A stretch of 62,531 bases of DNA, the filler included, from Sphacelaria rigidula (Eukaryota), in assembly GCA_964200075.2 (NCBI GenBank). It is 7 parts of 7 records of this genome, joined end to end, with 100 filler letters (N's around TTAATTAATTAA, not from the genome) between each part and the next. Parts side by side here need not be neighbours in the genome. Positions count along the whole stretch, not along the records: positions 35,794 to 44,639 come from CAXNAA020009948.1; 6 more parts are not named here. One strand, written 5' to 3'. The notes beneath the pieces are model-generated. The model was given only the letters and a program-made list of their open reading frames with translations, was not told the DNA's origin and made no database searches. How positions within the stretch are numbered: the first letter of the stretch is position 1; each line of letters opens with the position of its first letter. Positions 38,817-45,634 of this stretch are shown piece after piece. Position numbers and translations under genes: made by a program.

Positions 38817-41800
38817 ATGAAATTATTCTTACTGTCGCTTTTGCCCTGCTCTGCCTTGGCGGGTGGGTCCGTGTCTATATCCATCGCGGATCTTGGTGCT
38901 GTGAACAGCGTGGAATCGTTGGACATCAAAGGTATGTATTTGATACGCCCTAGGCACGTGTGTCGCACAAGTCGGAACAGTTATTGCATACCTGTATTGA
39001 AGGACATTACAAGAGCGTTGATGGCGAGTTGCCGGTCCTGGGCAACCACATCATACTGTACCCTATCGCTCTGTAGCGATTGCCATGTCTACCTCCCGAA
39101 GGCAGTTTGGGTTCGATTTGCTGGGTGAAACATGGCTCGCGTTCATACATTGTACCGAACACTGCAGATATCAAGGGCCAAAGCCGCTAGCTATGGGACG
39201 ATGCCGTGATCGCACCATGTCAGGCCTCTCAGTTATACCGGACCTCGGGGTTGGCTCGAACGATATAGTATATGTACCTGTATACCTAGACTACACCTGT
39301 GCTGTAATTTGCAGTAAAACACACACGGTAAGCTAGAATCTCGACAGCAAATCAAATCTGCATCGCAGAGAGAGCAGAATACGGATGTGGAACTTCTCTG
39401 AAGTACCCCACCAACGTCAACATCATTTCGTCATCGCCTCTACATGCGTGCCCTCTGCCCAAATCGCTGATCCTTTAAATAACCCATTCCAAAATGTCTT
39501 GGTAGGTAACTATGACTGCCAGCTGAACGACAAGGTCACCGGAAAAGCCGCATATAGTTTCAACAAGGACCGCTGTAGGCCCTCCGGTCTCACGGCGTGC
39601 TCCAGTGCGGACACCAAGTATGGCAAAGTGCTCGGAGCTGTGACGGTTGACCCTCAGGTGACTGATTCCACCGCACCTGTACGTAGCACGACGAACCCAC
39701 CAAGACCCGTCGCCATTTACCGACAATGAGTATTTTTTTCGGGCGTGGGCGTTGTTTCCTCTCATCAAACTTCCGCAACTCCGCTAACTAACGCTTGGAG
39801 GTATTAACTTGCAAATGCTTATTTGTACAGGGCTGTGTCACATGTGGTGCTTGTCTGTTATGTACTGTCTTGTTTCGACAACCCCCTTAGCGATTGATAC
39901 TTGGAGTACTTTGACTGTACTGTGCATGTTGATGCTGCGCGGTGTGGGTCCTCTCGCACAACTCTCTCTCTCTCCTTGTATGTTTCGGCTCTGAATCTAG
40001 TTGAAGGCTGGTGATGCCATTCGGGACAGAAACGGTTGCGCTGTATCTCTGGTATGCACGCCAAAGTTTTGAGCTTTTTTTTGCAAGCTTGTGCACGACT
40101 GGGGCCGACAACGTTGCACCAGTTGGGGCGGCGATTCTGCGCCTGCCACAGAACGGCTTAACAGTGCCACAGACGACACCGATCGATGCCTTCGGAAACC
40201 AGTGGGCCTCTGTATCATCAACCAATCAACGGTCCTCCACCACCGTTAGCGATCTTTGCATTGTGTAGTCGCGAGAGACCTATACACAGCCGAACCGCTC
40301 GAGCATTTTTCAAGCACCTCCCCGCGTGAAGGGTTAACCCGCGTGTGCATGCTTTCCCCCTGTACCCCATCTCGTACTTGGGACGTGCTGCACTCTGTAT
40401 CTCAGGAAAAGACTGCTAACGTGGATGCGACGCTGCGCAACGAAGAATTAGGTGCCTTTTCGACAAGTTATAAAGCCAGCGAGGTGAGGAGGTTACAGTC
40501 GTTGAGGAAACGTGACTGCCGTACAGTAGTGTTGGACTGTTGATATTCAGCGACAGCTGCGCTCTAAAGCAAAGCTCAGCACCCTAGATACGACCCCCAA
40601 TATTGGGCACCGCTGTCTCCACAGGCACGACTCGCTTGTTTTGGGTAATATCGCACATGATAAGGGGTCTCTCTACCAGAAAACAACTTCCCGTGTTTTT
40701 ATATCGAATATCGCGCACGACTAGGGGTCTCTCCGTCAGGCAGCAGCTTTCCGTGCTTTTTTTTTTCTTCATCTTATTGGTCTTCTTTTGCTTATTTTGT
40801 AAACACAGTCAGGGGGAGTCCTCGGCGCTTTCAGGTGGACCAGCAACCCGATGCCGTTCCCATTCGCATTGCGCGAGCCCACACCGATGGTGCTCAGCGC
40901 GTCCCACAACATCAAGACCAAGGAGGGGCACATGACCATAGCGGCCAAGCTAAACAACAACTTGGACGGCAAGCTACATCTTCCCTCGCAAGGGGATGCC
41001 GTCATTACGCTCGTAGGATCGCACAGGTCGGTGGGCCGCACGTTCACTTGTATACAAATGCAAGCCCCAAACGGGCCCCTCCCGCACCCAATGCCGCAAG
41101 TCGACCCTCCAGTTGAACCACGGTACACAAAAAACAGGAACAGTTTCTGCCGATAACGCCTTCCGTAAAGTTTCGAGGAGAGTGTGCATTTTGATGGAAC
41201 AAAGCAAAGGGGAGTATCTCTCATTTTATTTCGTGCTGCAGCCACTACTGTGGGCTTGCTTTCATTGCCACCGTATTGAAAGCATGACGCGCCCCGTGCA
41301 TGTACGTGTGAGCGCTGTCACTGCCACGTTGTAGGCAATGACTACGGTTCTCCCAGCGTGGTGCTGCTACACCTTGGGTAATTGGGTGGCTTATGTGTTT
41401 CTGACAACATCTCTGGAACTGTGAGCTCGACATTTGCCGTCCGCAAGACAGTTGCCACATCTAGTCACTACTGTAATTGCCCTGTAATCTACTCTACGCT
41501 TCTGTGATCAACCACTAGCTCACGACACTACTGACTTTTCTGCTGTGCATGAACTGTCTCTTGGCAGCGATTTACTTCGTGAATATATGCACAAACTTAT
41601 GTCCTTGCACACGATTCCACGGCTGCACTGGCGCCCAGCACCGCGCCCGTCAAATATGACGTAAACCTAGGAAATGCTTGCGGTCAATTCCCTGGTAGCG
41701 CGAAAGGTAGGTATGTGCAGCATTCTACAAACGAAGTAAAAGGTTGATCTATAGTTATCCCGTCTCTGGCATGATTCCTCAATAACTCGAACACTCCCAA

Positions 41801-44300
41801 TAAGCCTCCTCTCGACTCAAATTTGGCACAAAACAACGGCCAGCAAATGGTCGGCGTGACTGTCTACCAAAAGCACTACCCGAAAAAAAAATGTCTGGCG
41901 CCCGAGCATTCAACAGTTACACCGTTGTACGGTAGTCGGTTTATTTGTTTGCAGGTGATGTGTGTACCGCAAGAGTTGGGTTTTGGTCTCTGTACTTGAG
42001 CTATCCTGGAGTTACACGTGCTGCGAGCGAATGCCCTCGATTCCCCACGACGCTGGCACTCCCATTGTACGTTAGGGTCAAGACATGAAGTTAGCATCCT
42101 GCACGTTGCGATTATCCCGCAGCAGCCACAGCGTCAGCAAAGTCAACCGTTTCTTGACCATGGCAGCGACGCGTGCTGAACGCCTCACCGCTCCTGACCT
42201 AGCAGACTAGACGCCACGACGAGATGGCGCGCTGATTGCACCTTTGGTGCTCGTGGCTATGTCGCTTCCCACATCTCTGTTGGTTCTTTGTTGCACAGCC
42301 CGGACAAGGACTCAGACGTACGGATGTCGGCAAATGTCCTGGATCTAGCCGGGCAAGGGTTCGGCAAGGGGGCCGTTGGAGTGACGTACAAGCGCGACTT
42401 GGATGCCGTTGCGGTGAGACGACCTGCGGTAGGCTCCAGTAGCTAGTGTTGCACTAGAAATAACTACAAACTTAATTCACAAATGATCGACACGTTTGTC
42501 TCCCGCAGCATTCAAGGCGAGCTCCCGGACGACTTGACTGGCCGATCTGATCACTGCGAGTATTTATTGCTGATATTTCCGCTCGCAAAATCGTTGCTAC
42601 TGGAGAATTGTTAATCGCGTGGACGTAAATAGACACCAGTCGGACACTGTCGCTAACATGAACTTGTCGAAAATATTGTTTAGTTTCAGCTGGTAGGATC
42701 AACCAGCGACTATTCCAACCCTCCCGGTCAAAACTCTCGTCCAATTTTTCAATTGGCACGTAACCAGCAACCTGAACGCTAACGGGGTTAACAAGGTAGT
42801 GAGCCCTTGTTCAAAGCTGTCGCACGATGCGCGGTGGCTTTGGGTGGTCTTGCGTAAGGTAGATATACCCTGGCAAGTCCCCATGCGTACATGCACCCCG
42901 TTGTTGCATATGACATACCTCACCCTATACTGCTCGATATAGTGAAGCCTTGGATTCGCAGCGGAGATGGAAAATGCCAGTAACGCTCACATCGGGAGTA
43001 CAGTAGCTGTAACTGCGTCATGGGTTCGTGGTTCGTTGCTCTCTGTCGTAATGCACAATATAACCACCACCTTCTTATGGATGGGGGAGGGGGAGTTGCT
43101 GTTGCCATGTACGCATTTCGTCGATATCAAGTTGACGCACATTGAATGGGAATTATTATACCTCAAGTTAAATGAAATGCACGTAGCAATTGGTTGCTGA
43201 TGCTTCTCCCAAGAAGTTGCACCCCAGGTGTGCCATCTTCCAAACGATGGGCGACTCTGGTATCCCCCCCTGCTGTTGCAATTGCTGGTGAAACGGTGAA
43301 TACACCGGGGCTGTCTCGCTCCTGAACTTTGCACAGTACGATTAATTCATGCAGTGCCGGCTGCCGCGTTTGCAGGGTGTCATTGCGTTCCTTCTGTCGT
43401 CTGCCTTGTACATGTTGCACAGGAGACCGTCGTCATATTCGTCGTTACAGCACCGAAGTTAGATGTTGATGCATTCGCCGCGCAAGGTGCCCAGTTGTGT
43501 CACAGGTGTCTCGAACAAAATTATTTTCGAGTGTATACTTCGTATTTGCCATCGCACAACCCTCCCTTTGAGCACACGCCCGTGGCGTGAACGTCTCCAA
43601 GCGCTCTTGTCTCGACAACGAACGACTATGCTGCATCCGATCATGAAGGGGGGTTGCGTGAAAGACCTTGGGTAGATCCGTCAACTGTCATGCCCATCGC
43701 CGCTAGCCTTGACGTTGGATACAGGAACTGTCAGGAACTGTACTGTCGACGTGACAGTTTTCCGGCCAGTGATCATATGCCGATGCGTTCTCACTGAGTT
43801 TTACGGTATTTTGAAGTGCTTGTGCAGTAAGTAGCACATGTCTTGAGTGCCTCACGATCAGAGGAGTAAATGGACGCACACATGCTGTGCTACCCACAAT
43901 TCCGCACCAAACTGTCAGCGATGGCAGAGCACTCATTTATTTTTGCAATCGAATCGTTTGTCCGCTAGCCACGGTGGGCTAGTTCGTGGCCTTTCACTGA
44001 AAATGCCGCAGCGTATTGATTGTCGTCACATGATGCAAGTCGGTCCACGGTGCATCCATACGATTGACCACCCCACGCGTTTCTCGTCATATCTTTGTAT
44101 ATATCCTCGGACTTTTTTTGCAGGGCTCCACCTCTCGAGTGACGCTTGAGGGTAAGGACACGGGTGACTACGCCTGGAGCCTGAGCAACACATCCAAGAG
44201 GATGACACTAGTTTTGTCGGGGAAGGGGAAGTTCGCGAAACGAGGGAGTGACAAGGGCGCAGCCAGCACGGTTTCTCTTCGGCAAAGCTTCCGTTTTTAG
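38817..44300 (+). CDS. Complete multi-exon gene: signal peptide plus predicted beta-barrel protein (OEP24-like, stramenopile conserved-unknown type), 284 or 301 aa
   Basis: Exons 38817-38931, 39506-39657, [40001-40051 optional], 40406-40483, 40809-41026, 42299-42413 and 44124-44300. All introns are GT-AG, all phases match and there are no stops. Begins MKLFLLSLLPCSALA, has alternating beta-strand patterns, and ends ASTVSLRQSFRF*. The structure is well supported; the product is inference. Confidence 0.8.
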
Positions 44301-44519
44301 TTGACACACCACATCAAAACACACACCCAGTCAGGGCCCGATTGTCAAAAGCTGGAGCCTTTCCTGGAGCTCTACTCTAGCTGGCAGGACTTTGCGGATT
44401 GATCGAATTAAATTACTGAGGACCAAAGCTGGGGTAGAAATTCGGCGTTTCGCTGTGAGATTTTTTTCTTCGGACCGCATGAGTGATGATGCTGCAAGAT
44501 GCATGTAAAATTTACCTTT

Positions 44520-44600: not shown

Positions 44601-45634
44601 CCTTTTCCTAACAGGGGAGGGGGGGGGGGGAGACAGAGTNNNNNNNNNNNNNNNNNNNNNNNNNNNNNNNNNNNNNNNNNNNNTTAATTAATTAANNNNN
44701 NNNNNNNNNNNNNNNNNNNNNNNNNNNNNNNNNNNNNNNCCCAGCATGCTTTTTTTTTTTTTTTTCCACTGAGGCCCTTGATATCCCTGGGTAGGATATC
44801 GACGTGTAGCTGTAAGCACACGCAAGTGATGGAGGTAAAGAAAAACACAGGTGGAATAAAAGAATGACTCACTTAAAGGGAATGATCAAAGCCACTCTCA
44901 ATCGTATCATCTACTACTCTCAATCTCACGAAAACACTGTTTGGCGTGTTATGCAGCGTCCTTGCCAACCAACGCCAACCAACGCCAACCAACGCTAACA
45001 ATCGATAAAACGGGAGAAAGAGGGAGGAGGACAGGGGGGGGTACTCATTTGGTGCTTGCCTTGGTCGTTTCACCATTGACCACGCATCCCTTTCGTGACG
45101 GAGCACCGTTCCTATACTCCTAGTAGAGACACCTCCAATATTTGGATGCCCATTACGTTTCTTCCATACACACACACAAAACCTTTTGCATATATTATCT
45201 TGTCCTCGTCATGTTTCGCCGTCTGTGGCCACGATCTATCTCCTATGATGTTTGTTGTCAGGCTGCATGAAGCGCCTCATACGGGCGACATTGGCGAAAA
45301 CGAACTCAAGCGTGGGAATTCCGAGCCGCTCGTTGTTTTCGACTTTTTATTTATTTCGTTTCTTGTGTAAATTTTGTCTCCCCAAACCAGCTGCTTTTTG
45401 AGGGGAAGCTATCGTAGAAAGTGTCCTAAGTGGATTACGTCGAGACCTTCTCCTGGCGGTTGGGACGTAGGTTCGAATCTAGGTGAAGTCACACGATCTG
45501 CGATTTGTCTTCCAACATGCCCAACAAGTAGGTAGTATCTAGGACGCGTGTTTGAGGGGAACGTGCAGTCAACACACGAAATGATTCTGTAGGGGAGAGG
45601 CAAAGAGGAAAGCAAGAATATTAACTTCCCCAAT

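Follow-up and report, generated by a model that had tools for sequence, protein, structure and literature searches.

Transmembrane beta-barrels of eukaryotes are, to our knowledge, confined to the outer membranes of mitochondria and plastids. Plant OEP24, a protein of about 213 aa, is not known to have a cleavable targeting signal, and the mitochondrial barrels VDAC and Tom40 (PF01459) are built from 19 strands. In bacterial outer-membrane barrels, positions 3, 5, 7, and 9 of the last strand, counted back from the C-terminus, are hydrophobic. In diatoms, triose-phosphate translocators have been assigned to three of the four membranes that surround the plastid, and the periplastidial compartment (PPC) corresponds topologically to the cytosol, from where plant outer envelope proteins (OEPs) travel to the envelope. 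For OEP24 a 16-stranded barrel has been predicted (preprint 10.64898/2026.07.15.738633), and the second innermost membrane of red complex plastids is reported to harbour an Omp85/Toc75 homologue (PMC6115763). Structural matches to OEP24 without sequence similarity are described for rhodophytes, haptophytes, and the group of stramenopiles, alveolates, and Rhizaria (SAR) in a further preprint, which leaves open whether they reflect homology or convergence (10.1101/2025.06.18.660430). In the literature searches, this preprint on SAR look-alikes was the only pertinent find, and no paper naming a channel of the third plastid membrane in diatoms or brown algae was found. Here, a gene is described that is located at positions 38817 to 44300 of a joined DNA stretch of 62,531 nucleotides (the window; assembly GCA_964200075.2). 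The stretch with the gene belongs to the nuclear genome of Sphacelaria rigidula, a brown alga (Phaeophyceae, Sphacelariales).

With a probability of roughly 45%, the gene encodes an OEP24- or porin-like barrel of about 16 strands in the third plastid membrane, which would most likely act as a wide solute channel. A function as a pore is inferred from the size of the protein, the predicted number of strands (16), and a polar inner face. As a candidate for such a channel the gene is concrete: it is abundant-looking, backed by spliced contigs, and specifies a protein with a clear signal at the N-terminus and an invariant Phe at the C-terminus. With such a candidate, the question of the channel becomes directly testable. 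The parts of the gene are as follows.

38817..44300, plus strand: coding sequence of the Sphacelaria rigidula gene, ATG at 38817, TAG stop at 44298-44300
38640..38816, plus strand: 5' untranslated region (UTR) as far as the contigs extend, taken from the spliced-contig starts
38817..38931, plus strand: coding part of exon 1, with start codon, presumed signal peptide, and beginning of the conserved N-terminal segment, followed by a GT donor
38817-38861, plus strand: presumed signal peptide of 15 codons inside exon 1, with a hydrophobic core, small residues at -3/-1, and Gly-Gly behind it
39506..39657, plus strand: exon 2, from joints in three runs and tblastn of P0003 and P0007
40406..40483, plus strand: exon 3, from joints in three runs and tblastn
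40809..41026, plus strand: exon 4, the longest, 72 full codons, from joints in three runs; used as search query
42299..42413, plus strand: exon 5, from joints 41026|42299 and 42413|44124
44124..44300, plus strand: coding part of the last exon, contigs covering 44123-44500, stop at 44298-44300
44271-44297, plus strand: last predicted strand inside the last exon, ending in Phe

Joined by coordinates, the six exons yield 855 nt, corresponding to 284 codons and a single terminal stop, and all five introns have GT..AG borders. An in-frame stop is located upstream at 38670-38672 with no in-frame ATG from there to 38817, and an ATG of any frame is absent from 38640-38816. When the orthologues P0003 and P0007 were compared to the window by tblastn, the matches fell on exactly the six exon blocks, and the window contained no second copy. 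P0001, an 'unnamed protein product' of S. rigidula at NCBI, agrees with exon 4 at 100% identity.

Splicing was examined in four (X1, X2, X5, X8) of the eight sequencing runs containing the stretch, for which library types are unrecorded. The joints 38931|39506, 39657|40406, 40483|40809, 41026|42299, and 42413|44124 are present in a spliced contig each of X1, X2, and X8, that is, in three runs from two studies (X1 and X2 from P1, X8 from P2). The introns skipped in this way comprise 574, 748, 325, 1272, and 1710 bases. Word depth was 396-507 for the spliced contigs versus 0-6.5 for the introns. The spliced contigs start at 38640 (X1), 38669 (X8), and 38778 (X2), and according to contig coverage the 3' UTR extends past 44500. 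Since five introns were removed precisely, there is strong reason to regard these contigs as mRNA. Run X5 spans the whole stretch in one DNA piece with no joint at all. An intact gene with these exon borders had been proposed by a sequence-only reading of the window, and its five junctions recur as joints in the three runs. Of the two products it had considered, the one of 284 aa is specified by the spliced contigs and the one of 301 aa is unsupported; all ten strand strings it had listed are contained in the 284-aa translation.

Short unspliced contigs were also detected in X1, X2, and X8 inside introns 1, 4, and 5 (38994-44115) at a depth of 1.4-6.5; they may represent pre-mRNA or a trace of DNA. 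Base differences at positions 39008, 39317, and 41975 were seen in one contig each with a depth below 5.

These data also correct the public gene model P0001 (312 aa). Its 28 extra residues are derived from intron 5 sequence, 44040..44123 (+), by an upstream extension of the last exon of 84 nt. The contigs join 42413 to 44124, and P0001 without the 28 residues is the spliced 284-aa form. Inserts of approximately 20-30 residues at one junction are present in six of seven NCBI models (P0001, P0004, P0005, P0006, P0008, P0009) and are mutually unrelated. The last junction is joined directly, without insert, in P0003 of Pylaiella and in the full-length Logan proteins P0002 and P0007. The inserts in the five further models P0004, P0005, P0006, P0008, and P0009 are probably the result of an annotation error in the last intron similar to that in P0001. 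An in-frame open stretch with beta-like sequence in intron 5, 42697..42795 (+), was also considered as an exon and rejected: it is skipped by all three spliced contigs, missing from P0002, P0003, and P0007, and gave no tblastn match.

The N-terminus follows the same pattern in all eight relatives for which it is available, a hydrophobic core, small residues at -3/-1, and then Gly-Gly, the cleavage site being read by eye. Gly, and not Phe, Tyr, Trp, or Leu, is therefore placed at the presumed +1 position in 8/8. The following 24 residues or so are conserved, rich in Ser and Gly, net acidic, and poorly modelled. The mature chain of 269 aa has an isoelectric point of 9.1, a grand average of hydropathy of -0.34, and 33 Lys and Arg versus 27 Asp and Glu; Gly, Ser, Thr, and Ala make up 38.7%. 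Averaged over the family, hydropathy alternates residue by residue across most of the chain, giving strands with one hydrophobic and one polar face. Phe is the C-terminal residue in all 14 relatives reaching the C-terminus. Counted from the C-terminus, the window protein is hydrophobic at positions 1, 3, 7, and 9, with F, Q, L, and V at positions 3, 5, 7, and 9. The signal-like N-terminus, the mature start without an ASAFAP segment, and the terminal Phe, all noted in the sequence-only reading, are thus kept among the relatives, and the many alternating strands it had suggested agree with the hydropathy and with the all-beta models described below.

Two structures were predicted with AlphaFold2, model 1 for P0002 from an alignment of 13 sequences and model 2 for P0003 from 17 sequences, both alignments being shallow. 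The mean predicted local distance difference test (pLDDT) was 48.9 for model 1 and 56.2 for model 2, the predicted template modelling score 0.38 and 0.42, respectively. Both show the same topology, an antiparallel meander of strands of 8-12 residues connected by short turns, with pLDDT up to 70-85 across the first six hairpins. In model 2, the helix of the signal peptide and one short strand are followed by 16 strands beyond residue 40.

The models were compared by VIA-align to 48,161 representative chains of the PDB, model 1 being aligned over residues 1-177, and the top 50 rows were classed by their titles. According to the tool itself, a best Z score of 7-8 is typical without a true match. 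For model 1, 47 of the top 50 rows were outer-membrane barrels or complexes built on them, with a top Z of 11.5; for model 2 the barrels accounted for 49 of the top 50, the top Z was 11.6, and 32 chains reached a Z of at least 8. Lipovitellin, vitellogenin, and a Bacteroides protein of unknown function were the non-barrel exceptions among the top rows. The N-terminal half of model 1 could be placed on barrel walls with a root-mean-square deviation (rmsd) of 3.4-4.6 Å over 144-157 residues (8blw_A, 1nqe_A, 3efm_A, 4gf4_A, 3por_A), walls of BtuB, OprB, and Rhodobacter porin among them. What is predicted by both models is a meander sheet resembling a barrel wall, not a closed barrel.

Language-model features from the ESM Atlas were counted as a single source and taken as a lead only. 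For two family members, diatom clusters of 233-311 aa without a Pfam family scored 0.94-0.95, the plant OEP24 cluster, the nearest named one, 0.93 (186-190 of 256 features), and Porin_3 0.88-0.89. The automatic name of the diatom look-alike clusters, DUF4097 'putative adhesin', was rejected for the family, for which no DUF4097 match was obtained in Pfam at E<=10. The DUF4097 fold is a solenoid of short strands, whereas the models consist of hairpins with strands of 8-12 residues and not of short solenoid rungs.

Compared to OEP24 (PF28482), the window protein is likewise small, basic, and all-beta, and the 16 strands modelled here, at low confidence, equal the number predicted for the OEP24 barrel. 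It differs in the length of the mature chain, 269 aa versus about 213 aa, and in the presumed ER (endoplasmic reticulum) signal peptide, plant OEP24 being without a known cleavable targeting signal. VDAC and Tom40 were recovered as weak structural matches (VDAC1 with Z 8.4-9.5 and, in Foldseek, a probability of 0.87; Tom40 with Z 8.8-9.8), in addition to the Porin_3 score of the Atlas. In contrast to their 19 strands, 16-17 are predicted here, and mitochondrial barrels have no signal peptide.

Full-length relatives with 62-78% identity were found in Pylaiella, two Ectocarpus species, Hapterophycus, Scytosiphon, Laminaria, and further contigs, so that the family spans Sphacelariales, Ectocarpales, and Laminariales. 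When 1.84 billion representatives were searched with exon 4 and without filters, 16 matches were obtained, 12 of them fragments or orthologues of brown-algal appearance. The remaining four (P0021, P0022, P0024, and P0025) contain repeats of the SprB, Calx-beta, and 'LDGKLQ' types, were matched in 6-10 stretches, and were judged low-complexity artefacts. Relatives outside the brown algae were detected neither in the exon 4 search nor in a profile search nor in two metagenome scans, in which none of the 71 and 175 pattern hits, respectively, was a relative. This range is a lower bound, as the full library was queried with the 72 aa of exon 4 only and the other searches required words of five residues in common. 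A conserved family throughout the stramenopiles, as the sequence-only reading had it, was not recovered by these sequence searches, which gave brown algae only.

The most divergent exon-4-like sequence is P0017, a fragment of 156 aa. It is 62% identical to exon 4 of the window over residues 15-72 and 38% and 35% identical to the first sequences of alignments A2 and A3. It may be a paralogue or originate from a distant brown alga.

For a barrel of the third membrane, the following route is proposed. Sec61 would bring the chain into the lumen of the chloroplast ER, where the signal peptide would be cut before Gly-Gly. The conserved segment of about 24 residues, which has no aromatic residue at +1, could then serve as a periplastidial-type presequence or recognition segment across the second membrane. 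Finally, plastid Omp85 would recognise the C-terminal strand with its invariant Phe and insert the barrel into the third membrane counted from outside, which was once the outer envelope of the red-algal plastid. If the protein is an ER-signalled membrane barrel, the second innermost plastid membrane is the one sensible destination, because eukaryotic barrels are limited to outer membranes of organelles and Omp85 is present there. Plastid Omp85/Toc75 proteins differ from the window protein in being much larger and in having POTRA domains. Those of diatoms and apicomplexans are, like the candidate, nuclear-encoded and are barrels of the second innermost membrane (PMC6115763); plastid Omp85 is the likely insertase for the window protein.

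Presequences for the PPC are described as typically having no aromatic residue at +1 and tolerating acidic residues (PMC12136025, ASAFind 2.0), and Gly at +1 does not therefore speak against a location in the third membrane. The N-terminus is compatible with this description: Gly is at +1, acidic residues occur, and roughly 24 residues modelled with low confidence precede the first barrel strand. By its sequence this segment could be a signal of the PPC type, but its conservation speaks against a mere targeting peptide. A bipartite presequence of the stroma type (ASAFAP) was not recognized in the eight relatives with an N-terminus. The route had been called unusual in the sequence-only reading; given PPC-type presequences without an aromatic +1 residue, it is rather what would be expected for a protein of the third membrane. 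A wider proposal sees in the family the first solute channel to be identified in the third membrane of ochrophyte plastids. It would be an OEP24-like barrel of 16 strands that combines an ER signal peptide with a short conserved segment of periplastidial type and is handed to Omp85 by its Phe, a signal of bacterial style that seems to have been lost in plant OEPs; this we consider doubtful.

A number of observations weigh against an OEP24- or porin-like barrel in the third membrane. Both models are of low confidence, with pLDDT below 50 in the C-terminal half; barrel closure is not seen, and over the whole length the rmsd in VIA-align amounts to 10-16 Å. Foldseek searches of the PDB gave no match at E<=1e-3. 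Many of the weak Foldseek rows were single-layer sheets of OspA, others a TOC-TIC chain, Mdm10, VDAC1, and propellers. The open lipid-binding sheet of lipovitellin is among the low-rmsd matches (Z 10.0 and rmsd 5.2 over 133 residues for model 1, Z 8.0 and rmsd 4.5 over 136 for model 2). Of the beta-barrel that had been read from the sequence, the all-beta chain is supported, and its closure to a membrane barrel is putative. Atlas scores of at least 0.9 arise in 4-10 per 100 shuffled proteins, and the recognition value of P0007 is low (1669).

On the sequence level, no relevant Pfam family, including OEP24 and Porin_3, was obtained at E<=10 for any of the 10 members of alignment A1. P0001 and P0002 gave no OEP24 match at E<=10, and no family was found for P0003 and P0007 at E<=0.01. 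Stray Pfam rows were Big_9 (E 0.5) and DUF7881_C (E 0.1), each in one of the 10 members, and a search of the PDB by sequence returned rows at chance level only (beta-lactamase with E 0.02, DhaM with E 1.2). Because of the Pfam result the family was not assigned to OEP24. The resemblance to OEP24 claimed earlier holds for the language-model features (0.93) but does not extend to family membership, and the family is better described as porin-like with an ER signal peptide than as a member of OEP24.

Further contrary points come from the termini and from the range. A transit peptide of the classical kind is absent, and the residues behind the signal are acidic and conserved like the mature part. 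The single conserved N-x-S/T sequon fits a secretory glycoprotein equally well. Thirteen of the 14 relatives are one residue longer than the window protein, by which Arg comes to position 3 and the register of the last strand is shifted off the bacterial pattern. An invariant terminal Phe also distinguishes the family from plant OEPs, which, according to a preprint, are without a C-terminal beta-signal (10.64898/2026.07.15.738633). Finally, relatives occur in brown algae only, although a basic plastid pore would be expected to be widespread.

Some of these features would be accounted for by a soluble or lipid-surface secretory protein consisting of an amphipathic antiparallel sheet, with no membrane-spanning barrel and with its location (ER lumen, wall, vesicles, or lipid bodies) set by the signal peptide alone. 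A conserved, acidic, mature-looking segment right after the signal with Gly at +1 in 8/8, the sequon, models that stay unclosed, the OspA sheets among the weak Foldseek rows, and the comparatively low rmsd of the lipovitellin and vitellogenin sheets are all in line with it. Such stramenopile proteins outside the plastid envelopes exist in the diatom lipid-droplet proteins DOAP1 and PtLDP1, for which a beta barrel flanked by two alpha helices is predicted by the authors (PMC8100218). However, there is no conserved cysteine across the family, which is unusual in extracellular proteins, and the invariant terminal Phe would have no obvious role in a soluble protein. Membrane barrels are 47/50 and 49/50 of the best structural matches, and among named families OEP24 and Porin_3 come closest in language-model features. 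A meander of sixteen long strands with one face polar also appears to be rare among soluble folds. With lipovitellin, vitellogenin, and OspA the family shares a long antiparallel meander sheet, but the sequences are not similar, and the matches are of the generic kind between sheets, obtained with a model of low confidence. Taken together, a secretory sheet protein appears rather unlikely.

The protein could also be a true barrel of the third membrane with another job, such as lipid transfer, protein import, or service as an assembly partner, for example as the partner of Omp85 in a hybrid barrel. The structural evidence is the same as for the solute channel. Unclosed models would fit the idea, put forward in a preprint, that chloroplast barrels including OEP24 may be open and form hybrids (10.64898/2026.07.15.738633), but the open state may be an artefact of low-confidence modelling. 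The chain in the top Foldseek row, 7vcf_I, belongs to the TOC-TIC supercomplex of Chlamydomonas (E 7.2e-3, probability 0.90, template modelling score 0.25) and would point in this direction, but with an rmsd of 19.6 the match is weak. A function of this kind is considered improbable.

With bacterial porins and other outer-membrane barrels the window protein has in common the order of presumed signal peptide, mature beta chain, and C-terminal aromatic residue; it differs in the shifted register of the last strand in 13/14 relatives. That this layout was retained from a gene for a bacterial outer-membrane protein that arrived by horizontal transfer is very improbable, since no bacterial relative was found by the exon 4 search of the 1.84 billion representatives, by the profile search, or by the two metagenome scans, and the nuclear gene is interrupted by five spliceosomal introns.

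In the surroundings of the gene, about 2 kb upstream, a 199-aa open frame at 36034-36630 (+) matches the RVT_2 reverse transcriptase of the Ty1/copia type (E 3.4e-26, 92.8 bits) and is the remnant of a retrotransposon. None of eleven further long open frames in the window gave a Pfam match at E<=0.001. Approximately 340 bases past the stop codon, at 44640-44700, a run of N is followed by TTAATTAATTAA at 44684-44695, which has stops in all six frames, and by N again. This arrangement resembles a linker inserted between contigs when the assembly was scaffolded, and the 3' end of the gene may therefore adjoin a gap. Within intron 3, at about 40650-40760, two adjacent imperfect copies of a unit of approximately 50 bases are present, each with a T-run at its end and each preceded by an 'ATCGC.CA.G' motif recognized by eye.

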